IMG/VR virus record: IMGVR_UViG_3300032265_002780
Span: 1-55,243 of that record
Origin: a virus
Lineage: Duplodnaviria; Caudoviricetes
Length of the DNA: 55,243 bases
Strand: one strand, 5' to 3'
The translations under genes were made by a program, and so were the position numbers. A model generated the notes under the pieces. That model did no database searches and was not told where the DNA came from. It saw only the letters and a list, made by a program, of their open reading frames with translations. This document shows, piece after piece, positions 32,764 to 48,619 of this stretch (within the stretch, counting starts at the first letter, position 1; the number at the start of each line of letters is the position of its first letter).

Positions 32764-33522
32764 TTAGATACCCATCTGCTTGCGTTTTTCAGTTGCTGAA
32801 ATAGCTTCAATTTCTTCTCCTAACTTTACTTGTTCAATTTTGTAGCCAACATCACGACCATAGACTATATTTGTAATATTAGGCATTTTTATTACCATTG
32901 CACTATCCATAAATTCATCTTTAGCGATATATTCTTTTACTTGATTAAAAGTTAATGGATCTTTAGGGCTAGTATTAAATGTATTTCTAACTCCTAGCAT
33001 AACTTGACTTGTTCGTTTTCCCGCCTCTTCATATAAAGCATGATGACCTTCGTGCCATGGTTGATAACGACCAAGCATTAAAGTTGTAGGTGCTGACCAA
33101 TCGTGGAGATTAAACTTTTGAATAATATATGTTGATTTTTCATACTCATCCATTTTATGAGAAGAAAATTCAATATCAAAAGTTTTTGGAGAAACAAACA
33201 TTTTATTTGTATCTTCAAATCTTCCTTCATCAATTGTATTCATCCAAATTAAAATATCTGGTTGTCCAAAAGCTTCTCGTGTTGCTGGTGTTGGACAAAT
33301 AAAATCTACAACAACATTAAGTCCTTGACCAGATAACATCTTTGCTATTTCCCCCATGCGTCTGGCGTGTTCAATGCGATTTTCAATTGTAAATCCAAGG
33401 TCTGAGTTTATTGTAGAGCGAACATAATCTGCATTTAAATGTACTGCATTAATTCTATCTTTAAGGGCAGTGGCAAGAGTGGTTTTTCCACTTCCTGGCA
33501 AACCAATAATTTGTATAATCAT
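32764..33522 (-). CDS. adenylyl-sulfate kinase-like P-loop domain fused to HxGH nucleotidyltransferase domain
   Basis: GLPGSGKTT, NADYVR, DLGF...R, DFICP; then GRYQPWHEGH...ISATEKR. Start moved to ATG 33522 (SD GGAG). Confidence 0.8.
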   Translation of the reverse strand: MIIQIIGLPGSGKTTLATALKDRINAVHLNADYVRSTINSDLGFTIENRIEHARRMGEIAKMLSGQGLNVVVDFICPTPATREAFGQPDILIWMNTIDEGRFEDTNKMFVSPKTFDIEFSSHKMDEYEKSTYIIQKFNLHDWSAPTTLMLGRYQPWHEGHHALYEEAGKRTSQVMLGVRNTFNTSPKDPLTFNQVKEYIAKDEFMDSAMVIKMPNITNIVYGRDVGYKIEQVKLGEEIEAISATEKRKQMGI

Positions 33523-33530
33523 TATTCTCC

Positions 33531-34145
33531 TTAATCTGTTCCTTTTATTTTCTCTGTATTGTGAAGCCATGTTGGAATAGCATATCTTATTCCATTCTTT
33601 ATTTCAGACACAGAATGTATATAAATAAAATTTGATGGAAACAAGATAACGCTTCCAGCTTTAGGTTTTAATGTAATATTAGATTGGGGAAAATTAATTT
33701 CCCCGCCCTCATAATCATCATTAAGATATATTAACACACTTAATGCCCTGCTACTAGATCCATGATCTTCGTGTGGGGGCAAAGCACCGCCTCCAACATA
33801 TTTTAAAACATTTGGGTTTTCACGAGCTTTTAAGTTTATTTTTGAATAAGGATATATTTTATAATATTGTTCAAGGGCTAAACCTACAAAATCATTTATT
33901 GAATTATGAATATTTATTTCTTCATTATAAAAGGGAAAATCTTTTTGTATTTCAAACGCATTTTTTAATCTAAATTCATAACAAAAGGGTTGTTTATTTT
34001 TGTCTTGCCAAGGCTTCCATATTGTTTCTAAGCCCATCTCTATTCTTTTTTGATTTAAAGATTCAATGTTTTCAACTATTTGATTTGGATTTGTAACTAC
34101 ATCCTCAACAATTACCAAGCCTAGGTCTAAAATATTAATTTTCAT
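33531..34145 (-). CDS. prolyl-4-hydroxylase-like 2OG-Fe(II) oxygenase
   Basis: HED...YLNDDYEGGE..F...KPKAGSVILFPS...H.V...G.RY. Confidence 0.9.
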   Translation of the reverse strand: MKINILDLGLVIVEDVVTNPNQIVENIESLNQKRIEMGLETIWKPWQDKNKQPFCYEFRLKNAFEIQKDFPFYNEEINIHNSINDFVGLALEQYYKIYPYSKINLKARENPNVLKYVGGGALPPHEDHGSSSRALSVLIYLNDDYEGGEINFPQSNITLKPKAGSVILFPSNFIYIHSVSEIKNGIRYAIPTWLHNTEKIKGTD

Positions 34146-34692
34146 TTTTTAACAAATCTGGATCAGCAAATTCAATTTTTGATGAATGATGAAATAAAAG
34201 AGTATATCTTGTTCCGTTTGTAACTTCTGTTATTCCATGTATATAAGAAGAGTCTTGTTGCGGAAAAAATACTGCACTATATTTTACTGGAATATATTCA
34301 AAATTTTTCTTTGGAAAATAAATTACCCCTCCTTCAAATTCTGGATGCTCGTTTAAATAAATTACAGTGCTCCATTCAATAAATGGTTCTTTTTCAATAT
34401 TATCAATATGTGGATTTCCAGAAAAGCCTTTTAACCATTTTGATGAATACCCTTTTGTAGTATAGACATCAAAGTCTAAATTAAAAAGATTTTTTATTTG
34501 TTTATTTGCTTTATCAGAATATTTTTTTAAAATTGCCAAGGTGGTTTTATTGTATGGAAGAGCTGTTCCTCCGTTTCTATTTGAATAATGTTCTGGGTAT
34601 GGATTTACTTCTGAGGGATTGTTAATTTCAGAAATAATTGTGTTTGCACATTTTTGATCAATAAAGTTTTCAACAATATGTATTTGATTCAT
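34135..34692 (-). CDS. prolyl-4-hydroxylase-like 2OG-Fe(II) oxygenase
   Basis: HID...STVIYLN...FEGG...FP...HGITEVTNGTRYT. Confidence 0.88.
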   Translation of the reverse strand: MNQIHIVENFIDQKCANTIISEINNPSEVNPYPEHYSNRNGGTALPYNKTTLAILKKYSDKANKQIKNLFNLDFDVYTTKGYSSKWLKGFSGNPHIDNIEKEPFIEWSTVIYLNEHPEFEGGVIYFPKKNFEYIPVKYSAVFFPQQDSSYIHGITEVTNGTRYTLLFHHSSKIEFADPDLLKNEN

Positions 34693-35468
34693 TATATTCT
34701 ACTTCCATGATTAATAAATCTTTCCATGCCTCTATGAGGTAATTCTTTATATGTATACTCAACATCATTTAATTGATGATAAATTTTTTTTATTGGATAT
34801 TTTTTTGAATAAAAATCTACCTTATCAATATTTTCTTTTAAATCAACAAACTTATTAAATCCATAATTATACAAGGATTCAACTTCGTTATAGTTATGTG
34901 TTTTTGAAAAAGGTATATGATCATAGTCTTTTTCTTCTTCAACTTCAATAAGTTTATCTATGCCTTCCAAGATTTCATAAGACTTTGCGTATAGTCTAAT
35001 GGACAAATCCTCTTCTTCCCCCATAAGTCTTAGATAGTTTGGATACCCAATGTTTTTTATTACTTCTTTATTAATTAAAGTGCCCTTTAAAGAAAACTTA
35101 TCTTTATATAAAGAAATCAATGTTTTTTTATTATTATTTTTAATAAAATCTTTTAAATTTGTATCCCAGCCCTGTTTAAATTTTGTTGAAGAAGATATAA
35201 AAAATATATAGTGATCATCTGGAATTAAATCAATCATTCTTGATCTATGTTTTACAAAACCTTCAAAATGATCCCATAAAAAATATTCTATCCTATCTGA
35301 TTTAGAAAATTCTTTAACCTTGTGATGATAGCTGTCTTGTATTGTAATTGATAGCCTAATATCTTCAGGATTATTACATTTGTTAAATGCGTCTTCTACG
35401 GTTTCAATAATTTTTTTATCCCTGTAAGCAACACTTAATAATGTTATTTTTATGTTAGTGGTATCCAA
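34692..35468 (-). CDS. GT-A glycosyltransferase, GT60 (hydroxyproline-GlcNAc transferase)-like, divergent
   Basis: 'SVAYRD...ETVEDAF.K..NP...QD', 'F..GWD..L', 'GEE..LS.RLY'. The usual DSH motif appears as SSS. Confidence 0.6.
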   Translation of the reverse strand: MDTTNIKITLLSVAYRDKKIIETVEDAFNKCNNPEDIRLSITIQDSYHHKVKEFSKSDRIEYFLWDHFEGFVKHRSRMIDLIPDDHYIFFISSSTKFKQGWDTNLKDFIKNNNKKTLISLYKDKFSLKGTLINKEVIKNIGYPNYLRLMGEEEDLSIRLYAKSYEILEGIDKLIEVEEEKDYDHIPFSKTHNYNEVESLYNYGFNKFVDLKENIDKVDFYSKKYPIKKIYHQLNDVEYTYKELPHRGMERFINHGSRI

Positions 35469-36079
35469 TGTTGTTCCTGTTCTATTGGAAACTTTTTAAT
35501 ATGATTAAATGGAACTATGTCATATGCAACAGTAATTCTTGGTCCTTCCCATTGCCAATCCCCCATGGCGTGTGGGTGTCCCATTTCTGAAACAATCATT
35601 CTATTATTTTTATTTATATTTTCAAAAACTTTGCTTTCATCATTAAAAAGCTTATAGTATGTAGATGATGGTTCTGCTTTTACACAATAGTATCCGTGAA
35701 ATAAAGGTGCAAATTGATCTTTAGAATGATCATGCCAATTTAATTTGCCACCTTTTGCATCATTAATATTAAACCAGCCTTGCATCATATAGTTCTGCTT
35801 ATAAAAATCAATATCATAATAATTACAAGCTTCTTTGACAAGCTCAGAAACTCCATTATAAAGATTTCTAATGCCCTCTATATGAAACTGAAAAACATTA
35901 TACTCTCTCCATTTGATTGTTGAGATGCTTTTTGATTCTAGCCAATACTCTTCTGATCCCAGCTCTTTAACGCCAATAACTTTGGCTTGTTCTATAAGGG
36001 CATACCTTTTTGATAATTCATCAGACAATATATCTAGATCGTTATCTAAATATTTTTCAAAAAATTTATGATCTTTCAT
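35450..36079 (-). CDS. 2OG-Fe(II) oxygenase-like protein (HxH variant)
   Basis: GWFN...WHDH...HGYY...H...RITVAYDI double-stranded beta-helix pattern. Confidence 0.7.
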   Translation of the reverse strand: MKDHKFFEKYLDNDLDILSDELSKRYALIEQAKVIGVKELGSEEYWLESKSISTIKWREYNVFQFHIEGIRNLYNGVSELVKEACNYYDIDFYKQNYMMQGWFNINDAKGGKLNWHDHSKDQFAPLFHGYYCVKAEPSSTYYKLFNDESKVFENINKNNRMIVSEMGHPHAMGDWQWEGPRITVAYDIVPFNHIKKFPIEQEQHWIPLT

Positions 36080-36777
36080 TAATTATATTCTTTCTTTGAG
36101 TGAAGATATTTTGTATACCAAGAATGCAGTGTCATGCGTCTATTCTCATGCTCCCACATTTTTTCTTCTGTTATTGAGTTGTCTATTTCCATTTGCCAAG
36201 ATTCTCTGGTGTAAGGAAATACTTGAAATATTGGTGTTCCTTTTTTAATTATACCACTAAAGTCCCTTCTAAGTACAAACCTTATATCTAGCGGGGCAAA
36301 TTTTTTATCTGAATCTACAATTGCAGTTGGAACATGAAATGGCAAATCTGATCTATTAAAGGGGTGGGTTACAAGAACAGATGTTCCTGGTGGTGTTGAT
36401 ATACCAAACATCATTCTAAATGAAAAAGCTATTGGATGAAAAAATGGAGGAATAGGAAATTCAACTAAATGGAATCTATTTATAACAAAGTTTTTTGATT
36501 CCCAAGAAATCTCTGGAACACCTTTTTCATTAATTTCAACCAATATATCTTCTGGTAAAACAAAATGATATCCTGAAGCAAAGGCGTCAAACGTTGGTGC
36601 ACAAATCTTTAAAGATAAAGAGGATGAGTCAAGACCTTCATTATTTTCTATGTTAATATCGTTTAAATGATTAGACGCATTATACATGCTGATATCTTTA
36701 TACCACTGAGGAATATTAACTTTTGCTGGAACTGGATCTGGTCCATTACCCACCCTATAAAATTTTATTTTTTTCAT
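36079..36777 (-). CDS. DUF6065-like protein (possible dUTPase-like fold)
   Basis: 'PVPA...IPQWYK...KIC.P.FDAF.SGY...TPPG.S.L.THP...IVDSD...GIIKKGTPIFQVFP..RE.W'. Confidence 0.55.
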   Translation of the reverse strand: MKKIKFYRVGNGPDPVPAKVNIPQWYKDISMYNASNHLNDINIENNEGLDSSSLSLKICAPTFDAFASGYHFVLPEDILVEINEKGVPEISWESKNFVINRFHLVEFPIPPFFHPIAFSFRMMFGISTPPGTSVLVTHPFNRSDLPFHVPTAIVDSDKKFAPLDIRFVLRRDFSGIIKKGTPIFQVFPYTRESWQMEIDNSITEEKMWEHENRRMTLHSWYTKYLHSKKEYN

Positions 36778-37325
36778 TTTATAACCATATCATATGCTGG
36801 AGTTAATCTATTTATTTTTCCATATGTTTCTTTAATTGCACTTGATTCTTTTTTAACAAAAAATGGAATCCAAACAGGTTCAAGAATTGTTCTTGGTTCT
36901 GGATAAATAGACTTAAAATTTACAATATTTTTTTCAGGAATAAAAAAGGGATAATCTTTTATGTTTGGTTCTACAAATTCAACTTCAGCATCAATATCAA
37001 TAAACCATGGGCAATACCAAGCATATAAATTTGAAAAACAATTATCTGGAACCGTTATGCCAACATTTTTAATTTCTTTAAATTGTGGTGTTGCTGGTCT
37101 TGATTTCATAAAAATTTCTTTATCATTTTTAAAAATAATTGCATATTCACTATAACAAACCTGTCTATAAATATTTTTAGATATTTTACTGGGTTTTGGC
37201 ACAATTATGTATGAATACAGATGTATTGGTTTTAAAACATCTTTACAAAATTTACTTTTAATTTCTGGATTTATTTCAGCATAAGTTGTATTATGTCTCA
37301 TTATCGGTATTCTTTCTTTGACCAA
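36774..37325 (-). CDS. divergent DUF6065-like/hypothetical protein
   Basis: 'PWFID...P...PF...PFF.K...G.I...TP' loosely parallels its two neighbours. Confidence 0.45.
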   Translation of the reverse strand: MVKERIPIMRHNTTYAEINPEIKSKFCKDVLKPIHLYSYIIVPKPSKISKNIYRQVCYSEYAIIFKNDKEIFMKSRPATPQFKEIKNVGITVPDNCFSNLYAWYCPWFIDIDAEVEFVEPNIKDYPFFIPEKNIVNFKSIYPEPRTILEPVWIPFFVKKESSAIKETYGKINRLTPAYDMVIK

Positions 37326-38014
37326 AATTTCATTCTATACCCATTAGAAAAAGTTGATCTAATTTTTTTTCTTTGACGCTCTATTGTATCTGCATCATAA
37401 TCATGAATAATGTGGTCCCAGTCTTCTCTTTTAAAAGGTAAAATTTGAGCAATTGGTGTTCCCTGCTTAATAATTCCATTAAAATTTCTTTTTACTAAAA
37501 AGGACAGATGTCCGTCTGTAACAAAAGTGTCTGTGTCTATAACTGCTGGAACCATTTGTATTGGAAGGTCTTTTCCATGCATTGGCGGTAAAAATAAAGT
37601 GCTGTAACCTGGAGGTGTTTTTACAACCCACAAAGGATGAATTCTTAAAATATCTGGCATAAAAATAGATTTATCTATTGGCATCATTGAAACTTGTTCT
37701 CTTGGATGTCCTGAAATAATTAGCGGTGATGCATGCTTCCAATCATGAGGAACTTGAGCCTCATGTCTTTCTTTTTTTGAATCAATAAAAATATCAACTG
37801 GAGCTTTTAAAACATATCCAGTAGCTAGGGCATCAAAAATAGCTTGGCATTTTTTTACCGTAAATTTATAAGAACCGTCAATTATATTTTGTTCTCCGTT
37901 TATTGTTGCTGGTTGTTCTTTCCACCAAGAAGGTATGTTTAAAGTAGTTGGTTCTGGTTCGGGTGCTGTTCCAATTAAAATATTGTTTGCTGGTAAAAAA
38001 GATATTGTTGGCAT
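37301..38014 (-). CDS. DUF6065-like protein, paralog of 36079..36777
   Basis: 'PEP...IPSWWK...KKC..IFDAL.TGY...W..KTPPGYSTLF.PP...VIDTD...GIIKQGTPIAQILPFKREDW...W.KKEY'. Confidence 0.6.
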   Translation of the reverse strand: MPTISFLPANNILIGTAPEPEPTTLNIPSWWKEQPATINGEQNIIDGSYKFTVKKCQAIFDALATGYVLKAPVDIFIDSKKERHEAQVPHDWKHASPLIISGHPREQVSMMPIDKSIFMPDILRIHPLWVVKTPPGYSTLFLPPMHGKDLPIQMVPAVIDTDTFVTDGHLSFLVKRNFNGIIKQGTPIAQILPFKREDWDHIIHDYDADTIERQRKKIRSTFSNGYRMKFWSKKEYR

Positions 38015-38016
38015 AA

Positions 38017-38628
38017 TTAACTTTCTTTTTTCAATGTGTAATCAACATTTAAAATGCATCTAAATGGATTGTTTTTTGTTGTGTATGAAGAATGAAATTG
38101 ATGACCATTAAATCTAATTGCTTTGCCCATTTTTGGCGTAACAGATTTAATAATTTTTGCATCTTTTGTATCTTCTCCAAAAAATTTATTAAAAAAAATT
38201 GTGTCCCCATCAGAATCATTTAAATAATATAAAAAGACATCATGTTTAACTATTGTGTCTACATGTGGATAATGAAAATAATCATCATTATTCATACCCA
38301 AAACAACAATCCTTGATCTTAAAATTTTATCATATTTAATGTTGTGTTTTATGCAAAATTTATCAAAAATATGTTTAAAGTCTTCAAATTCTATTTCACC
38401 TATAACTTGAAAAAACGGTTTAGCATTTTCATGATCAAAGGCTAGTGGGGTTCCTTGATAGGGAAAGAGTTTAGGGTTTTCTTGTTTTGCAAGAATGGCT
38501 TGAATATTAGTAAGTCTCCATTTAGGTTTTTGAGAACCAACTTCCTCTGTACCAAAAATTTGCAGGACAAAATCCATTTGCTCTTCTTTTGTTAAGAAGT
38601 TATCATCTTCTATAATATAATCGCTCAT
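38017..38628 (-). CDS. 2OG-Fe(II) oxygenase
   Basis: PHVD...LYYLNDSDGDTIFF...PKMG....F.G...HSS...R..LN. Confidence 0.85.
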   Translation of the reverse strand: MSDYIIEDDNFLTKEEQMDFVLQIFGTEEVGSQKPKWRLTNIQAILAKQENPKLFPYQGTPLAFDHENAKPFFQVIGEIEFEDFKHIFDKFCIKHNIKYDKILRSRIVVLGMNNDDYFHYPHVDTIVKHDVFLYYLNDSDGDTIFFNKFFGEDTKDAKIIKSVTPKMGKAIRFNGHQFHSSYTTKNNPFRCILNVDYTLKKES

Positions 38629-38639
38629 ATCTATCTTTC

Positions 38640-39200
38640 TTATTTGATAAATCTAAATAGGACTATGTTTACAAATTCCCCGTCATTAAATTTCTTAAAG
38701 GGCCTTGAATGTTCTTGCTCTTTACCCATAAAAGTTACGCCTTCATTATTTTTAAGTAAATAATCAAATCCCTCTACATTAATATTCCAGTCTGTATTTG
38801 ATTCTATCTGATAATCTAGGTGCACTGTAAAATCTGCTTCTGTATGATCTTTGTGACCTGGCAATTTAGGATTTCCAAATAAACCATTGTATTCAAAATA
38901 AGATGTAGAATCAGAATATTTATAATCTTTAAATCCTGATTCATTTATCAATAAAGTAAGTCTATCAATTATGTTTTGAGGAATTTTTAAATTATGTAAA
39001 ACAATCCTTCCAAGCTCTTTTTTATGAATAAATAATGTTTTATTAGTATTAAGCTTTTCACCTTTTTCATTTTTTGGAAAATCTTTAATCCATTTTTGCC
39101 AAGAGTCTTGTTCTTGTATGCCTTTATTAATAATAGATTTTAAATTAATTAATTGATCATTATTTAATACATCTTTAATAACAACATTTTTATTGTTCAT
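38640..39200 (-). CDS. 2OG-Fe(II) oxygenase-like protein
   Basis: PKLPGHKD...LDYQ...W...NEG..F.G..Q.HSRP. Confidence 0.7.
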   Translation of the reverse strand: MNNKNVVIKDVLNNDQLINLKSIINKGIQEQDSWQKWIKDFPKNEKGEKLNTNKTLFIHKKELGRIVLHNLKIPQNIIDRLTLLINESGFKDYKYSDSTSYFEYNGLFGNPKLPGHKDHTEADFTVHLDYQIESNTDWNINVEGFDYLLKNNEGVTFMGKEQEHSRPFKKFNDGEFVNIVLFRFIK

Positions 39201-39227: not shown

Positions 39228-40109
39228 TTAAATATTTTTTTCAGAGCCCAGTACGAGCATATTTTCAGTAAAAAAGTTATTATATGGTTTACATACAATA
39301 GCTACATTGTCAAATGTAGATTCAATTTCTTCTACAAGCTGGATATCAATAAATCTATTAAATTTATAAGAGTATATTTGATATGTATCATTAACTTCAG
39401 ATGCTTTTATAAAAGAAACTAAATCTTCTTTTTTGCATAAAATATAATGAGAGGGGGTAAAAACATCTCCATCTATATAAATATACTTGTCTGATGGACC
39501 CACATTTATTGAATCAACAACAGTTTCTACAAAATCTTTTTCAGGATCTATATTTTTAAAATCTATTCTTGATAAATCTTGAGAATTTATTTTTAAAGCC
39601 AATAATTTATCTCCAACTTTAAGTTGTTCTGAAGATTTTAATCCATTTAATGTTTGCACTTTTGTTTTAATATTTAAAGAATTTGACCAACCACCACCAA
39701 ATCCGTAAGGTGTAAAGCCAAACGGTGTAAAAGAAAATGGTACAAAAGAAAAGTTTGGAACAATTCCTGTTGTTGTTGAAATATAAGGCCCTGGGCCTGC
39801 AGCTGTTCGTGCTCTCAAACTAAATTCATATGTGTTGTTTACTGTAAAGCTTCCAGTTACTGTTATTGTCCCGCCCGCTGGATTTAAAGTTCCAGAATAT
39901 GTAATTGGTATTGAGGTTCCTAAAATATCAATAATATCTCCAGTATTTGTTCCAGAGCCTTGTAAAGGAATCAAAAATTCGCCATTAGTTTGTATTGGTC
40001 CGTATGTAAGTGTAACTGTTGTTGAGTTTACAACCGTATTTGTTAATGAAGCGGGTGAAGATGGAACTCCAACTGAATCTCCAGCTAAATTTGTTAAAAT
40101 ACCAGCCAT
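39228..40109 (-). CDS. FN3-like domain + Phe/Pro pentapeptide repeats + C-terminal Hint domain
   Basis: aa 1-118 FN3-like (YEFSLRARTAAGPG); aa 120-141 FSFVP-FSFTP-FGFTP-YGFGGGW; from S144 Hint block A (SLNIKTKVQTLNGLKSSEQLKVGDKLL), block B TPSH and a block F/G-like end NNFFTENMLVLG. Confidence 0.72.
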   Translation of the reverse strand: MAGILTNLAGDSVGVPSSPASLTNTVVNSTTVTLTYGPIQTNGEFLIPLQGSGTNTGDIIDILGTSIPITYSGTLNPAGGTITVTGSFTVNNTYEFSLRARTAAGPGPYISTTTGIVPNFSFVPFSFTPFGFTPYGFGGGWSNSLNIKTKVQTLNGLKSSEQLKVGDKLLALKINSQDLSRIDFKNIDPEKDFVETVVDSINVGPSDKYIYIDGDVFTPSHYILCKKEDLVSFIKASEVNDTYQIYSYKFNRFIDIQLVEEIESTFDNVAIVCKPYNNFFTENMLVLGSEKNI

Positions 40110-40110
40110 T

Positions 40111-40794
40111 TTAAGATATTCCGTTTCCGCTAATTGTCCAAGATGTTGAAGTTGTTTTTATTAATGTTGCCATAGCATATGGAGAAAGTGTTCTAGTTCC
40201 AGTTGAACCAGTTCCAGCTAGTAGAAGTGTGTCTCCACAAGCAATTGTTGATGTAACTCCTGCTGCATTTATAATTACAAAAGAAAAACCAATTGGTAAT
40301 GCTAGGTTTGAATTTGCAAGAATTGTAAGTGCAGTTGAATTTGTGGTTATATAAATATGTTTTCCATTGTCTGTTGCTGCAATATTATAAGATGAACCTG
40401 GATTTGTATTTTGTGGAATTCCCATATAACCAACTTGTGAAGAACTTGTTAAAGTTCCTGCACCTGCAATGATTGTTGAAGGCAAAATTCCCGCAGATAT
40501 ATTTGTTGCTGGAAATGTTCCAGAAGTTATATTTCCGACGGAAGTTAGAGATGAAAAAATAACATTAGAAGCAAGAGTTGTCCCTACTAAAGTTGATGCA
40601 CTTGCTGTAAGTGGAACACCATTAACGCTAAAAATTCCATTAACATTTAAATTTCCAGATATATTTGTTAATCCACCAACATTTAAATTTCCAGATATAT
40701 TTGTTAATCCACCAACATTTAAAGGACCATCTACATTAAGAAAAGATGCTTTTAAGGGGTCTATATATTGATGCTGTAACTTGGCTAATGCCAT
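40111..40794 (-). CDS. tail fibre-like virion protein
   Basis: 'SSLTSVG.ITSG' shaft motif; C-terminal 'D.GKHI...LPIG...G.TGTRTL..Y.MATLIK....W.ISG' domain. Confidence 0.65.
   Translation of the reverse strand: MALAKLQHQYIDPLKASFLNVDGPLNVGGLTNISGNLNVGGLTNISGNLNVNGIFSVNGVPLTASASTLVGTTLASNVIFSSLTSVGNITSGTFPATNISAGILPSTIIAGAGTLTSSSQVGYMGIPQNTNPGSSYNIAATDNGKHIYITTNSTALTILANSNLALPIGFSFVIINAAGVTSTIACGDTLLLAGTGSTGTRTLSPYAMATLIKTTSTSWTISGNGIS
40642..40723. repeat. perfect 36-bp tandem repeat, about 2.3 copies
   Basis: aacatttaaatttccagatatatttgttaatccacc twice plus a partial copy; encodes LNVGGLTNISGN. Confidence 0.9.
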
Positions 40795-40809: not shown

Positions 40810-43800
40810 TTAAGCCTGTGCTTCTGTCCAGGATATACGTGCGTATACTTGAGCTGTAGTACTTGCAAGATTTTGTACAACAATTGTAAGTACATCTGGT
40901 CCATCTGGGTAAATACCAGTATTTGCAACTGCTGTTCCGCCACCAAGTATTGAGTTACCAAGATCACGAAGTGGAGATAAATCTGATGTTCCTGTACCTG
41001 CTACAAAGAATCCACCAGTTTTTTCACCACCGCTAAAGGTAACGTTTCCATTTAAAGAATAATCTGCAATTTGTGCAAGTGAAGAGTTTGGAACATTTGC
41101 TACTCCACCTATTGCATTTGTCCATGTTGTTGCTGCAGAAGGAACGCCATTTAGATATGCTAATACTAAAAGGTTAGATGTTGCAGAGTTTAAAACAGAA
41201 ATATCAAGAGTTGAAAGTGCCAACTGCATTCTATTTATAAGTTCACGAGCACCAAAACCTGCTGCAATACCATTGTCTACAGATGGTGCACATCTAATAG
41301 ATAGCAATGCTTTTGTATTTGCAAGTGAAAATGAAAGCGTAGCTGAAGATAATGTAGTAGCAATATTTTGATTAATTGTAAATGTTGTTGCAGAGTTAAC
41401 TGCAGTAACATAAGAACCAGCAGTTAGTGCTCCAGTTCCTGAAGTTACTGTTACTATTTGACCAACAGCAACCGCAGCAGTACTTGTTACGGTAATAATT
41501 GCTTGTGCTGATGAACCACTTGCGCCTGTAATTGTTTGAACAGTTGATGGCCCAATCTGAGTTGGAGCAGTTTGTCCATAAGTAAAGAGAAGAGATTTAT
41601 CTCCATCAAAACGACCATCCATAATAACTGATGTTCCCCAGTGTGATATTGAAGGAGCAAAAGTTGGATAGGCAAGTTCTACAGCAATTGGTGCTGTTGA
41701 AGAATATGTAAATGTTTGTCCAGTTGATGTGTTTGCACCATTTGATCCTGTTGTAACACCCATTGGTGGTACAACTACTGATGATGTAGAAGCTGTTGCT
41801 GCTTGACTAATTGTAAATGTATTTGCACCCGCATTAATTGAGGTAATATATGTTCCATCTGGAATTGTTGTAGCAATAACTCTTTGACCAATTTGTAGTC
41901 CTGCTGTAGCTCCTGCAGAAACAGTTGCTACACTTGAACCAGAGGCTAAAGTTGTTGATAGGGAGGTATTTCCTGCTTGACAACGAATTAAACCAGTAAA
42001 GCTTGTTGATGTTGTTCCTGTGTAATTAACATATTCATAATTTGAAGCATTACGAACAACCAAGGTTCCTGATGAAGGAAATTTAGATGTATCAGAAACT
42101 ACAATTGATGTATCTGAAGGATTAACTGTTGATGTTATAAATGTTGTTGGAGGTGTTGTTACTGTTTCATAACGTCCTGGAAGGTTTCCTGAACGCATAT
42201 ATGCTTCTGTATTAAGATTGTTATTAGGCATCTTATGAACATAAGTTACATCTCCACTAGGTCCTCTTAGGCCCCAACGAACAAATCCTGCACCATACCA
42301 TGTGTAATCAATATAAAACATTTGCATTTTAGATAGATCAAGACTGTATCCTGAAGGGCCTGTTCCATCCATTTTATCAAGATTCCATTGTGATTGTGGA
42401 ATTTTAGTATCAACTGTACGTGATACAATTGCATTTGTTGCGGTTGTTCCACGATATGATGGGCTAATTGTAAGGCTTGTGTCAGAAGCAATATCTGTTA
42501 CACGATAAGATTGTCCACGAAGAACAATATTATCTCCTGGAACTAATTGTTTTGAAAAATATGTTGGAAAAGATGAGTTTGTTTGAGTAATTGTATTTGA
42601 ACTATTTGTTAAAGTAACTTTTCCAGAAATTTGAAAAACAGAGTTACGACGAACAGCATAAATTGTTGTTCCATCAAATTCAAAAAATAAACCGTTTTGT
42701 TGATCAAATATACCTAGTCTATTTGATGCTCCATACCATTGAGCTACTGAAAGTGTATAGTTTCCTGAAGCAACTGAAGCAGACGGAGTAGTTGTTGCTG
42801 TATACGTAAATTGATTCCATCCAATTACCGATGTAACAACAAATGTTCCATTATATGCAGATTCATTTGCTCCAGCAACTATAATGGATGCACCTGGTTG
42901 AAGATTATGTTTTTCTTTTGTTTGAACTGTAACTGTTGTTCCAGAAGAAGTAATTACATCTAGATTTGCATAAGGCTTAAGAATTGTTCCAGATGACATT
43001 TGAATTCCCTTACCTGATTGATAACGGAAATAACGACGTGTTTGTCGTACTGCTTGTTCAAAATTTGATGAACCATTAGATGAGAAAAGTACTCCTCCAT
43101 CAAATGCTCTGTGAGCAAATGAACCTTGTGGGCGAACATAAACTGCTGCTGATGTTGCAACAAGTGTTCCACCAGTAATTGCAGCTGCTGGATAAACAAT
43201 AAATGTTGTAGGGTTTGTTATTGTGGATACAACAAAAGATCCATTTGGATTTGTTCCTGTTGCTCCAGTAATACCAGTAATTGCAATTTCATTTCCAATT
43301 GCTAATCCGTGTGGAACTGTAGTTGTTACTGTTAAAGCATTTGTTCCAGCAGCAAATGAGACTGTAGGTGCTGCACCAATTTGTGCACCAGAATATGCTG
43401 CTCCTGTATAAATTGCAGTTTTATTTGTATCAAAAATAGATGTAAATGATGTATTATTTGCTGCTCTTGCAGTATATGTAAAATTTGTTCCTGCAGAAAC
43501 TGTTTCTACAATAAAATTACCATTTGCAATACCAAGGTATGTATCAAGTATTGAAACTGGCGTTCCAACTGATGGAGGTGTTGTAGTCAATACAGTAACA
43601 GTTCTTGAATTTGAAGCCATTGTAATATCTGTGATGTTAGAAATTGTATATGGCTGTGAATATGCATATGGGCGATTATTAATCGTTGTAAGATTTTCCC
43701 ATTTAGAAATTTGTGGACCATATTCAAAGTCAGTATCAATAAGTGCTTGTGGAGATGATGTACGAAGCTTATTTGTTGGATCTAAAACTGTTTGATCTGG

Positions 43801-44331
43801 GGTAAACTTTTCTGCATATTCATCAATTGTAATTTGAATCTTATCTGTTGATGACATTGCAGATGTATTATAATTTAGAACAATTACTGTATTTGCTGCA
43901 GCAGTAATAGTTCCTCCAGAAATCCATGTAGTTCCCGCTGTTAAATAACCAGCTGCAGTTTGAGCAATAGTAAATTGTGTAGAAGTTGCAGAAGCAACAA
44001 TACCAGTAATATTAAAAGCGCTAGGAGTTGTGCCTGTAATAGTTACTGTTTGTCCTGGTAAAAATGAATTATTTGCAGTAATTGTAGTTATTGTTCCTAC
44101 GGTTGCAGGTGCTACAGACATACCTGTTACATAAGCAATTAATTGGTTATCAGTATAACTAGAATATGAAGTTGCTAGGAGGGAGGCATCAGAAAAATTA
44201 TAAATTACTTTGTTAGCAGTAACGTTTGTAATAAGTACTAAACGTTCTCTTCCAATATATCTTGGTAATACTACTGTTTTTGTACTTGGTACAAATGTAT
44301 AACCTGTTTCTAACAAAATCTTTCTTGCCAT
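40810..44331 (-). CDS. large virion structural protein with repeated beta modules
   Basis: 1173 aa. Several 'TVTT..PH.L..G..I.I.G....NG.F.V' repeats, interleaved with blocks (LIDTDFEYG, RQTRRYFRYQSGKG, MFYIDYTWYGAG, SHWGTSVIMDGRFD) recognised from phage virion proteins. Confidence 0.7.
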   Translation of the reverse strand: MARKILLETGYTFVPSTKTVVLPRYIGRERLVLITNVTANKVIYNFSDASLLATSYSSYTDNQLIAYVTGMSVAPATVGTITTITANNSFLPGQTVTITGTTPSAFNITGIVASATSTQFTIAQTAAGYLTAGTTWISGGTITAAANTVIVLNYNTSAMSSTDKIQITIDEYAEKFTPDQTVLDPTNKLRTSSPQALIDTDFEYGPQISKWENLTTINNRPYAYSQPYTISNITDITMASNSRTVTVLTTTPPSVGTPVSILDTYLGIANGNFIVETVSAGTNFTYTARAANNTSFTSIFDTNKTAIYTGAAYSGAQIGAAPTVSFAAGTNALTVTTTVPHGLAIGNEIAITGITGATGTNPNGSFVVSTITNPTTFIVYPAAAITGGTLVATSAAVYVRPQGSFAHRAFDGGVLFSSNGSSNFEQAVRQTRRYFRYQSGKGIQMSSGTILKPYANLDVITSSGTTVTVQTKEKHNLQPGASIIVAGANESAYNGTFVVTSVIGWNQFTYTATTTPSASVASGNYTLSVAQWYGASNRLGIFDQQNGLFFEFDGTTIYAVRRNSVFQISGKVTLTNSSNTITQTNSSFPTYFSKQLVPGDNIVLRGQSYRVTDIASDTSLTISPSYRGTTATNAIVSRTVDTKIPQSQWNLDKMDGTGPSGYSLDLSKMQMFYIDYTWYGAGFVRWGLRGPSGDVTYVHKMPNNNLNTEAYMRSGNLPGRYETVTTPPTTFITSTVNPSDTSIVVSDTSKFPSSGTLVVRNASNYEYVNYTGTTSTSFTGLIRCQAGNTSLSTTLASGSSVATVSAGATAGLQIGQRVIATTIPDGTYITSINAGANTFTISQAATASTSSVVVPPMGVTTGSNGANTSTGQTFTYSSTAPIAVELAYPTFAPSISHWGTSVIMDGRFDGDKSLLFTYGQTAPTQIGPSTVQTITGASGSSAQAIITVTSTAAVAVGQIVTVTSGTGALTAGSYVTAVNSATTFTINQNIATTLSSATLSFSLANTKALLSIRCAPSVDNGIAAGFGARELINRMQLALSTLDISVLNSATSNLLVLAYLNGVPSAATTWTNAIGGVANVPNSSLAQIADYSLNGNVTFSGGEKTGGFFVAGTGTSDLSPLRDLGNSILGGGTAVANTGIYPDGPDVLTIVVQNLASTTAQVYARISWTEAQA

Positions 44332-47068: not shown

Positions 47069-48619
47069 CTAAATTGCATCCATAATTTTTAGTATAAGAA
47101 CGTCATCTGCCCATCGTATACCTGGTGATTGTGTTGAATCTACAACAAGTGTTTGAAATTTTGTACCAACTGGAAGTCTTGTTGTTGATTGAAAACCATT
47201 ACCTACTATTAAATCACCTGTATTAGTAATAAGTGCATTAAAGTTACCCAGAGGTCCTTGAACTCCTTGTAATCCCTGCACTCCTTGTACGCCTTGAATT
47301 CCTTGCGCTTGATTAAATCCACCACCTTGCAAACCTTGAGTTCCTTGAAGTTGTGCATAACCAAATCCTTGAATACCTTGTGTGCCTTGTGGACCTTGAA
47401 TACCTTGAATGCTTAAACCTTGAAGGCCTTGAGTTCCTTGAAGTTGTGCATAACCAAATCCTTGAACACCTTGTGTGCCTTGTGCACCCTGAATACCTTG
47501 TGTACCAGTTGCTCCTTGTAAACCTTGTAAACCTTGTGTACCTTGTGCTTGATTAAATCCGCCACCCTGAAGACCTTGTACACCTTGTGAACCTTGAACT
47601 CCCATAAGATTATCATAAGATTCAAACCATTCTGCACCATCCCAAATATATGTTCTTCCGTCATTAATATTTATCCATCCCGACCCAATTAATGGTGAAG
47701 ACGGAGGTGTTGATGAAATTGCATATGTGTTTACATTTCCTTGAATGCCTTGTAAGCCTTGTATACCTTGTGTGCCTTGTAAACCTTGAGTACCTTGAAT
47801 ACCTTGAATACCTTGTATACTTATGCCTTGTAAGCCTTGTATACCTTGTGTGCCTTGTAAACCTTGAGTACCTTGAACGCCTTGAATACCTTGTATACTT
47901 ATGCCTTGTAAGCCTTGTATACCTTGTGTGCCTTGTAAACCTTGAGTACCTTGAACTGAACCAGCTTGTCCTTGAATACCTTGTAAACCTTGTGCTTGAT
48001 TAAATCCGCCACCTTGAAGACCTTGTAAACCTTGAAGACCCTGTGTACCCTGTGCAGCAGTTGGACCTTGAATACCTTGTGTACCTTGTAATCCAATTTG
48101 TCCAGCAACAGAAAATATCCATCCTGCATATGTTCCAGATCCGACAAATTTATCTGAGTTTACTGTGATAGAAGTATTTGCTGTTAATGAAGTAATTTGT
48201 CCTTCAATATAACTTGTTGGAGATCCCGACGGAACTACAATTACTCTTTGTCCATTTATAAATGCACCAGTACTTGACACTGCAAATGTAAGGGAGCCTG
48301 TTCCTAAAGTTATACTTGTTGTTGATGAAACACCTAAATAAGAAACGCCTTGTGTTCCTTGAATGCCTTGAATAGACAAGCCTTGCACACCTTGTGTGCC
48401 TTGAATGCTTAATCCCTGTAAACCTTGATTTCCTTGTGTTCCTTGAACGCCTTGAATACCTTGTGTTCCAGCGCCTGTTTGTCCTTGTAAACCTTGAACA
48501 CCTTGCGAACCAATTGTTGTTCCAATAGAATCCCAAGTAGTACCATTCCAAATCCAAGTGCGACCTTGGTAGCTGTAGGTTTGATTTAACGACGGGGATG
48601 ATGGAAAACTTATGGCCAT
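47069..48619 (-). CDS. collagen-like (G-X-Q) fibre protein
   Basis: MAISFP module, then three G-X-Q tracts separated by globular modules; near-perfect 78-bp internal tandem repeats. Confidence 0.88.
   Translation of the reverse strand: MAISFPSSPSLNQTYSYQGRTWIWNGTTWDSIGTTIGSQGVQGLQGQTGAGTQGIQGVQGTQGNQGLQGLSIQGTQGVQGLSIQGIQGTQGVSYLGVSSTTSITLGTGSLTFAVSSTGAFINGQRVIVVPSGSPTSYIEGQITSLTANTSITVNSDKFVGSGTYAGWIFSVAGQIGLQGTQGIQGPTAAQGTQGLQGLQGLQGGGFNQAQGLQGIQGQAGSVQGTQGLQGTQGIQGLQGISIQGIQGVQGTQGLQGTQGIQGLQGISIQGIQGIQGTQGLQGTQGIQGLQGIQGNVNTYAISSTPPSSPLIGSGWININDGRTYIWDGAEWFESYDNLMGVQGSQGVQGLQGGGFNQAQGTQGLQGLQGATGTQGIQGAQGTQGVQGFGYAQLQGTQGLQGLSIQGIQGPQGTQGIQGFGYAQLQGTQGLQGGGFNQAQGIQGVQGVQGLQGVQGPLGNFNALITNTGDLIVGNGFQSTTRLPVGTKFQTLVVDSTQSPGIRWADDVLILKIMDAI

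Follow-up and report, generated by a model that had tools for sequence, protein, structure and literature searches.

What is a Hint domain doing at the end of a small phage protein, and can it still act there? The Hint fold is familiar from inteins, Hedgehog processing domains and bacterial BIL domains. The question arises from a 55,243-nucleotide viral sequence (Duplodnaviria; Caudoviricetes), IMG/VR record IMGVR_UViG_3300032265_002780, positions 1 to 55,243. We analysed this stretch, hereafter the window, at its full length; it is the whole record, with an estimated completeness of 50% and a GC content of 29–38%. A gene at 39228–40109 on the minus strand, the strand of every feature described below, encodes a protein of 293 residues (31.8 kDa) composed of an FN3-like domain, a Phe/Pro repeat and a Hint domain. 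We propose, with a probability of roughly 0.55, that this Hint domain removes itself: an N-to-O acyl shift at Asn143-Ser144 followed by ester hydrolysis would free a 14.6-kDa fragment carrying the FN3-like domain and the repeat.

The Hint domain spans residues 144–288 (39246–39680), as judged from AlphaFold2, Foldseek, profile comparison and VIA-align. An AlphaFold2 model of the 293-residue protein, built on 17 sequences, had a mean predicted local distance difference test (pLDDT) score of 77.6, with values of 81–90 across most of residues 141–290, 66–70 in the loop at 171–190 and below 50 at residues 1–12 and 120–141. Foldseek matched the model to BIL2 (6y75; E 7.1e-7, template modelling (TM) score by target 0.78), the gp41-1 intein (6riz; E 1.1e-5, TM score by target 0.81), a C. 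thermocellum BIL domain (2lwy; E 1.6e-5) and Hedgehog (1at0; E 5.5e-4). VIA-align gave Z scores of 17–19 to BIL2, inteins and the Hedgehog domain HhC, with root mean square deviations (rmsd) of 1.7–2.2 over 125–139 residues. The best was again 6y75 (Z 19.2, rmsd 2.0, 138 aligned), and 2lwy followed closely (Z 17.3). Against the Mtu RecA intein (2in0; Z 17.4), model residues 144 to 288 ran with chain residues 1 to 440, which we take to be Cys1 and the terminal Asn; against 1at0 (Z 17.4), model residues 144 to 290 ran with chain residues 258 to 402, the first of which, Cys258, is presumably the Hedgehog nucleophile. Because FN3 matches swamped a search of the PDB with the full-length profile (alignment A1), we built a domain-only alignment of 14 sequences (A2), whose profile matched the Aes123 PolB1 intein (9hth) at E 6.3e-4. 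A horseshoe-like all-beta fold, the Ser144 nucleophile and a block-B TxxH, by which the HINT superfamily is recognized, are all present. The first-pass annotation of this DNA had proposed a C-terminal Hint domain and suggested comparing a predicted structure with Hint folds; that comparison, with its matches to BIL2, inteins and HhC, confirms on the model that residues 144–288 form a genuine Hint domain of the Hedgehog/intein fold, far beyond chance.

The VIA-align superpositions and the A2–9hth alignment also allowed us to assign the key residues. In the latter, the S-x-x-H of the family falls on TADH of 9hth and its L-v-y-D-S end on LVH(A)S. On this model-based reading, Ser144 (codon 39678–39680) is intein position 1, the site of the nucleophile; His221 is the block-B His, within Thr218-Pro-Ser-His221 (TPSH; 39447–39458); Leu287 and Gly288 (39246–39251) stand where inteins have the penultimate His and the terminal Asn; and Ser289 takes the +1 site. 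Ser144 also shares a column with Cys1 of Cys-type relatives in alignment A1. The earlier proposals that block A starts at Ser144, that block B is intact and that the terminal His-Asn is missing have thus all held up. The junction GGGWSN/S covers residues 138–144 (39678–39698; the slash marks the predicted scissile bond Asn143-Ser144), and a five-residue tail, SEKNI (39231–39245), follows the domain. The range 39228–39680 runs exactly from Ser144 through the stop codon, and the protein reads ...FSFVPFSFTPFGFTPYGFGGGWSN/SLNIKTKVQTLNG...VGDKLLAL...DVFTPSHYIL...VCKPYNNFFTENMLVLG/SEKNI.

Family models hardly recognize this domain. The window protein had no match in Pfam at E up to 10, including S74, PF01079 and every other Hint-type model, and none in NCBIfam at E up to 1. 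Among its 17 relatives, Intein_splicing matched weakly in 4 (best E 3.3e-4) and Hint PF01079 in 3 (best 0.011), and there were weak matches to Hint_2 in 2 of 17 (0.13) and to PT-HINT in 1 of 17 (0.07). A HMMER scan with residues 138–293 against 1.84 billion representatives returned 85 cluster representatives with E values no higher than 1e-3. For 44 of these E was 1e-10 or lower, the window protein matching 43 further representatives at E 6.6e-40 to 1e-10. In nearly all 85 the match runs close to the C-terminal end of the protein. A pattern scan of IMG/VR gave 201 confirmed loci, and the 80 kept for analysis contain 79 domain-bearing open reading frames (ORFs), every one with Ser at position 1 and the block-B His (79/79). 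In all 77 complete IMG/VR ORFs, only 3–12 residues follow the Hint domain, which is therefore the extreme C-terminus. Alignment A4 picked out only 2 loci when representative genomes covering 185,579 prokaryote species were scanned, each on a metagenome-assembled genome contig of about 10 kb, and a single-protein scan of cellular genomes for close relatives yielded 86 stretches, none of which proved to be a relative. The family is large, almost purely viral and has no Pfam model.

Pooling the database proteins, an Erwinia phage protein and the IMG/VR ORFs gave 159 distinct domains; after dropping 29 fragments without position 144 or 288, we counted residues in the remaining 130. Position 1 is Ser in 125 and Cys in 5. 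The first residue of the block-B motif (B:7) is Ser in 89 and Thr in 34 (Ser/Thr together 123/130), and its His (B:10) is kept in 126, with Gln in the other 4. The C-terminal end is far more variable: the penultimate site (G:6) has His 50, Phe 50, Tyr 16, Leu 9 and other residues 5; the terminal site (G:7) has Asp 104, Asn 15, Glu 9 and Gly 2; and the +1 site has Ser 56, Thr 14, Arg 24 and others 36, so that a nucleophile stands there in only 70 of 130. In the set obtained by HMMER only, Ser144 and His221 are among just 15 of 156 positions at or above 85% identity. Counts at columns 273–282 are biased by the fixed columns of the IMG/VR pattern; the unbiased HMMER-only counts there are 79/97 for Cys273, 84/97 for Glu274 and 81/96 for Asp277. 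The family signature is Ser1, [ST]xxH, a C-E-P-x-D-x-F-F-T block and a [HFY]-D end with a short tail at the extreme C-terminus. The window protein fits it except for E274K, D277N and its Leu-Gly end. The missing His-Asn is thus a family-wide trait, the usual end being His, Phe or Tyr followed by Asp, and the Gly a peculiarity of the window lineage.

The tails that follow the Hint domain are patterned (SNTVD, SSTVD, SHSV, SRSV, SVSI, SLPH, RPD..). Ser or Thr follows a His-Asp end in 40 of 45 domains and a Phe-Asp end in 14 of 50. One clade may, from its residues, keep a full splicing set of Ser1, His-Asp and Ser+1 with a C-extein of 4–5 residues, and splicing onto the short tail is conceivable in family members ending His-Asp-Ser. 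The Cys1-type relatives P0014–P0017 end ...DYLVHNK and have Gln in place of the block-B His. Another relative, P0092 (1108 residues), carries tandem Hint domains at 765–925 (ending MLVYD) and 949–1101 (ending MLVNN).

How did the window protein come by its Leu-Gly end? Gly at G:7 occurs in the window protein (P0001) and in one relative that is 91% identical to it (P0002). In a FastTree phylogeny of the 130 domains, arbitrarily rooted, this pair is sister to P0003, which ends Phe-Asp/Ser, and is nested in a clade whose ends are Phe-Asp, Tyr-Asp, Leu-Glu or Met-Glu. This nesting suggests that Leu-Gly is a recent, derived state; the Gly288 codon, GGC, is one transition from GAC. Five positions of blocks F and G depart from the consensus: Ala270 (Ser in 109/130; the column aligns with the intein block-F Asp of 9hth in A2), Lys274 (Glu in 124), Asn277 (Asp in 121), Leu287 and Gly288 (Asp in 104). 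Ser144, Thr149, Thr218, His221 and Cys273 are all kept. Between the window protein and P0002, the Hint domain is identical at 133 of 145 positions (91.7%), the FN3-like domain at 93 of 104 (89.4%) and the repeat with the junction at 26 of 26 (100%); 8 of the 12 Hint differences lie within the 175–192 loop. Since the Hint domain is as conserved as the FN3-like domain in this single pair, the comparison gives no sign of Hint decay.

Which reactions would remain open to such a domain? In the part of the source available to us, step 1 of intein chemistry is described as the work of the position-1 nucleophile, aided by Thr B:7 and His B:10, and step 3 as requiring a cyclisable terminal Asn, Asp, Gln or Glu (PMC4031507). 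With Gly at the terminal-Asn site and Leu in place of the penultimate His, the sequence of the window Hint excludes both splicing and C-terminal cleavage. The first-pass annotation had likewise ruled out splicing, and the same portion of that source upholds it, as Gly288 would be unable to cyclise (PMC4031507). Cleavage right after the repeat peptide and Hedgehog-like ligation had both been raised in that annotation as possibilities. We propose that the domain performs only the first intein/Hedgehog step. The Ser144 hydroxyl, aided by block-B Thr218 and His221, would attack the Asn143 carbonyl in an N-to-O acyl shift, and water would then hydrolyse the resulting ester at Asn143-Ser144. The products would be a mature protein of 143 residues (computed mass of residues 1–143, 14.6 kDa), comprising the FN3-like domain and the Phe/Pro repeat and ending ...GFGGGWSN, and a free Hint fragment (computed mass 17.2 kDa). 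The host protein would be a small component of an appendage or fibre module in a T4-like phage related to cyanophages, and its Hint domain a self-removing C-terminal cap, with a role comparable to that of the S74 intramolecular chaperones of tail spikes.

The family-wide pattern argues for self-removal. The step-1 residues are fixed although G:6, +1 and the tail have drifted, a sign that what the family conserves is the N-terminal acyl shift, and the invariance of Ser1 and the His across a family of 27–50% identity argues for catalysis. BIL domains also yield mainly cleaved products, according to the accessible part of one report (PMC7664689). Several points weigh against self-removal. If the conserved acids aid step 1 or ester hydrolysis, activity may be reduced in the window protein, judging by its substitutions. 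We found no experimental or proteomic record of cleavage. A search for a short, Hint-less counterpart of residues 1–143 gave 26 candidates, none significant. Oxygen esters, moreover, resolve more slowly than thioesters.

A serious, though less likely, rival explanation is that the window lineage has retained an inactive Hint, which would stay on the mature protein as a folded knob at its distal end, with a binding or structural function. A fold by itself is no proof of function, the five block-F and block-G substitutions (A270, K274, N277, L287 and G288) and the recent origin of the Leu-Gly end in the tree would suit a domain that has lost its chemistry, and a structural role explains the whole-domain conservation between P0001 and P0002 equally well. 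However, the window protein keeps Ser144, Thr149, Thr218, His221 and Cys273, and unless the junction undergoes chemistry it is difficult to see why, at 27–50% identity, 130 of 130 domains should have the nucleophile and 126 of 130 the His. Protein splicing, in which the Hint would be excised and the 143-residue part joined to SEKNI as a mini C-extein, is barely credible for this protein. Ser289 could serve as a +1 nucleophile, Ser or Thr follows the His-Asp ends of the family in 40 of 45 cases, the Erwinia phage pEa_SNUABM_5 protein gp108 has the full set of Cys1, THEH, His-Asn and Thr+1, and inteins with a terminal Asp, Glu or Gln can splice, as stated in the available portion of PMC4031507; but Gly288 is non-cyclisable and Leu287 replaces the penultimate His, so that at most a dead-end branched ester would form.

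A further alternative, which we regard as improbable, is that the Ser-Hint cap is a ligase. Instead of water, a Lys amine of a virion protein, or a sugar or lipid hydroxyl, on a virion component or on the host surface, would resolve the Asn143 ester and leave the FN3-repeat protein covalently linked through its C-terminus. Hedgehog, which is joined to cholesterol in this way, offers a precedent. The best structural match of the window Hint is BIL2 (Z 19.2), and the flexible Phe/Pro repeat before the junction (pLDDT 33–38) could serve as a reach arm. The family-conserved acids E274, D277 and D288, near the active site, could activate the incoming nucleophile. Tetrahymena BIL2 is described, in the part of the source at hand, as making Lys isopeptide bonds without ATP (PMC8616854). 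Yet those acids are absent from the window protein, no acceptor was found, a Ser ester donates its acyl group less readily than a thioester, and the five-residue tail after the Hint leaves no region resembling a sterol-recognition region. Were this reading true, phages would attach FN3, PASTA or Ig arrays covalently, by Hedgehog/BIL2-type chemistry and on a sticky Phe/Pro tether, without ATP or enzymes.

Self-removal can also be set beside known Hint systems, all of which resemble the window domain in part. BIL domains (2lwy; Tetrahymena BUBL1 BIL2 6y75 and 6tmm) share its fold, position-1 nucleophile and block-B TxxH, whereas the window Hint starts with Ser instead of Cys, lacks a His-Asn end and is 14–16% identical to them. 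BIL domains are described, in the portions of two reports available to us, as autoprocessing, non-mobile domains of variable, non-essential proteins that mainly cleave rather than splice (PMC7664689, PMC5874633). The window Hint, unlike BIL domains, is viral, lies at the extreme C-terminus with a 3–12-residue tail across its family, and has FN3, PASTA or Ig arrays as cargo. Like HhC (1at0), it is a C-terminal Hint behind an extracellular-type domain, would carry out step 1 only and lacks the terminal Asn. In Hedgehog, a Cys follows a Gly at the junction and a sterol-recognition region follows the Hint; in the window protein, by contrast, the junction is Asn-Ser and five residues remain after the Hint. 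On these grounds and the missing PF01079 match, we rejected a Hedgehog/Hog domain. Class 1 mini-inteins (Mtu RecA, Ssp DnaB, gp41-1 and Aes123 PolB1) match the window Hint in fold and in blocks A and B, and Ser1 is known among inteins from the cysteine-less Aes123 PolB1 (9hth, which by its PDB title carries an S1A mutation in the crystal). The window Hint differs in that no conserved host protein surrounds it and it has no real C-extein. We rejected a class 1 intein on its terminal Gly288, its penultimate Leu287 and a Ser289 with only the five residues SEKNI before the stop, as well as on the lack of a host insertion, the Hint being terminal in 77 of 77 complete IMG/VR ORFs and no Hint-less short counterpart having been found. 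A class 3 intein with Cys273 as nucleophile was rejected as well, since Ser144 is present and the F:4 column holds Ala270 (Ser in the family), with Cys273 three residues later.

Two comparisons concern phage fibres directly. S74 chaperones of phage tail spikes and fibres have a Ser-Lys dyad and form oligomers. Their role is the one proposed for the window Hint, and their fold and chemistry are unrelated to it; a peptidase S74 chaperone was rejected here because there is no Pfam match and the domain fold is Hint. S74 domains lie C-terminally in fibre proteins and self-cleave at a Ser after folding, according to the available part of PMC7824862. The only cultured-phage relative that we found is gp108 of the Erwinia jumbo phage pEa_SNUABM_5 (phrog_38766, 'putative tail fiber protein'), 28.5% identical over residues 151–286. 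It likewise has a C-terminal Hint on a fibre-module protein, but differs from the window protein in its collagen-like N-terminal part, an Arg-Gly/Cys1 junction, THEH and an ILVHN/T end with a 10-residue tail; judging by these residues, its Hint is in principle capable of splicing, or of cleavage at both ends. We found no description of a C-terminal Hint domain on phage structural proteins in the portions of the full-text literature available to us, supplements aside (including PMC3556154, PMC5259590, PMC5526547, PMC7824862 and PMC12143355).

What would the cap be released from? The FN3-like beta-sandwich occupies residues about 14–117 (39759–40070) and rests on four lines of evidence: weak FN3 matches by sequence (phmmer, single sequence against the PDB; no other matches), fn3 matches in Pfam for 13 of 17 relatives, beta strands in the AlphaFold2 model (pLDDT 72–89) and FN3 chains among the Foldseek matches. 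It is followed by a Phe/Pro pentapeptide repeat, FSFVPFSFTPFGFTPYGF, at residues 119–137 (39699–39755), modelled as disordered (pLDDT 33–38). Alignment A1 shows no variation at F120, F122, P124, F125, F127, P129, F132, P134 or F137 of the repeat, and the back-translated Phe/Pro motif has two overlapping matches in the window, against 0.01 expected, both within the repeat. In 10 long relatives, Pfam found fn3 in 6, PASTA in 2 and He_PIG in 1, with no match in 3. These sequences present the N-terminal parts as swappable display domains (FN3, PASTA or Ig arrays) ahead of the Hint. In the ESM Atlas, DUF642, Laminin_G_3 or fn3 is followed by a C-terminal domain of similar structure in further Uroviricota clusters, which we treat as leads only.

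The gene neighbourhood is that of virion structure. The ATG of the 293-residue gene lies 1 nucleotide past the stop of an upstream fibre-like gene, within a long run of minus-strand genes. That upstream gene (40111–40794) encodes a 227-residue protein with a tandem LNVGGLTNISGN repeat, a Thr/Ser-rich body and no PHROG match, presumably a fibre component. Beyond it lie a 1173-residue virion structural protein homologous to cyanophage S-PM2 p175 (40810–44331; 45.7% identity; phrog_5838, E 7.8e-299) and a 516-residue collagen-like tail-fibre protein (47069–48619) with many PHROG tail-fibre matches (best E 5.6e-39); head protease, capsid-like and collagen-like fibre genes are also nearby. Given these neighbours, the Hint gene belongs to the virion/fibre module. 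On the other side, a 237-residue protein of phrog_7084 with a weak DUF6065 match (37301–38014; paralogue at 36079–36777) has homologues at most 6 kb downstream of the Hint gene in 45 of 80 IMG/VR loci, within 160 bp in 33. Its AlphaFold2 model (pLDDT 80.0) has a dUTPase/dCTP-deaminase-like fold: a wide VIA search gave Z 11.4 to 3h6x, the top 22 rows all belong to the dUTPase/dCTP-deaminase superfamily, and unrelated rows fall below Z 5.2. The protein has 22 invariant residues across 22 sequences. Two genes stand between it and the Hint gene: 38640–39200, with homologues in 3 of 80 loci, and 38017–38628, with homologues in 2 of 80 and a phrog_274 match whose label, 'DNA endonuclease V', is doubtful.

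Further downstream are two 2-oxoglutarate (2OG)-Fe(II) oxygenases of PF13640 (33531–34145, E 5.8e-15; 34135–34692, E 1e-8), an N-acetylglucosamine (GlcNAc)-transferase-like protein (34692–35468; PF11397, E 6.6e-7) and an adenosine phosphosulfate (APS)-kinase-like protein (32764–33570). Of 80 loci, 41 have a homologue of the first oxygenase and 31 one of the second at a distance of at most 6 kb from the Hint gene. We considered whether the enzymes of this cluster hydroxylate or glycosylate prolines of the Phe/Pro repeat and set the idea aside: the oxygenases co-occur with 28 of 42 repeat-rich and 13 of 28 repeat-poor members, which is not significant (Fisher p 0.14).

Together, these data describe a family that caps the C-terminus of phage display and fibre proteins, with Ser and Asp replacing Cys and Asn. 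If the cap is self-cleaving, it would be, beside the S74 chaperones, another and independent way of making a fibre cap that removes itself, and a natural cysteine-free, N-cleaving Hint that would be useful in protein engineering. The Gly at the terminal site of the window protein is a natural experiment, which isolates the N-terminal reaction and bears on whether the family needs its conserved Asp.

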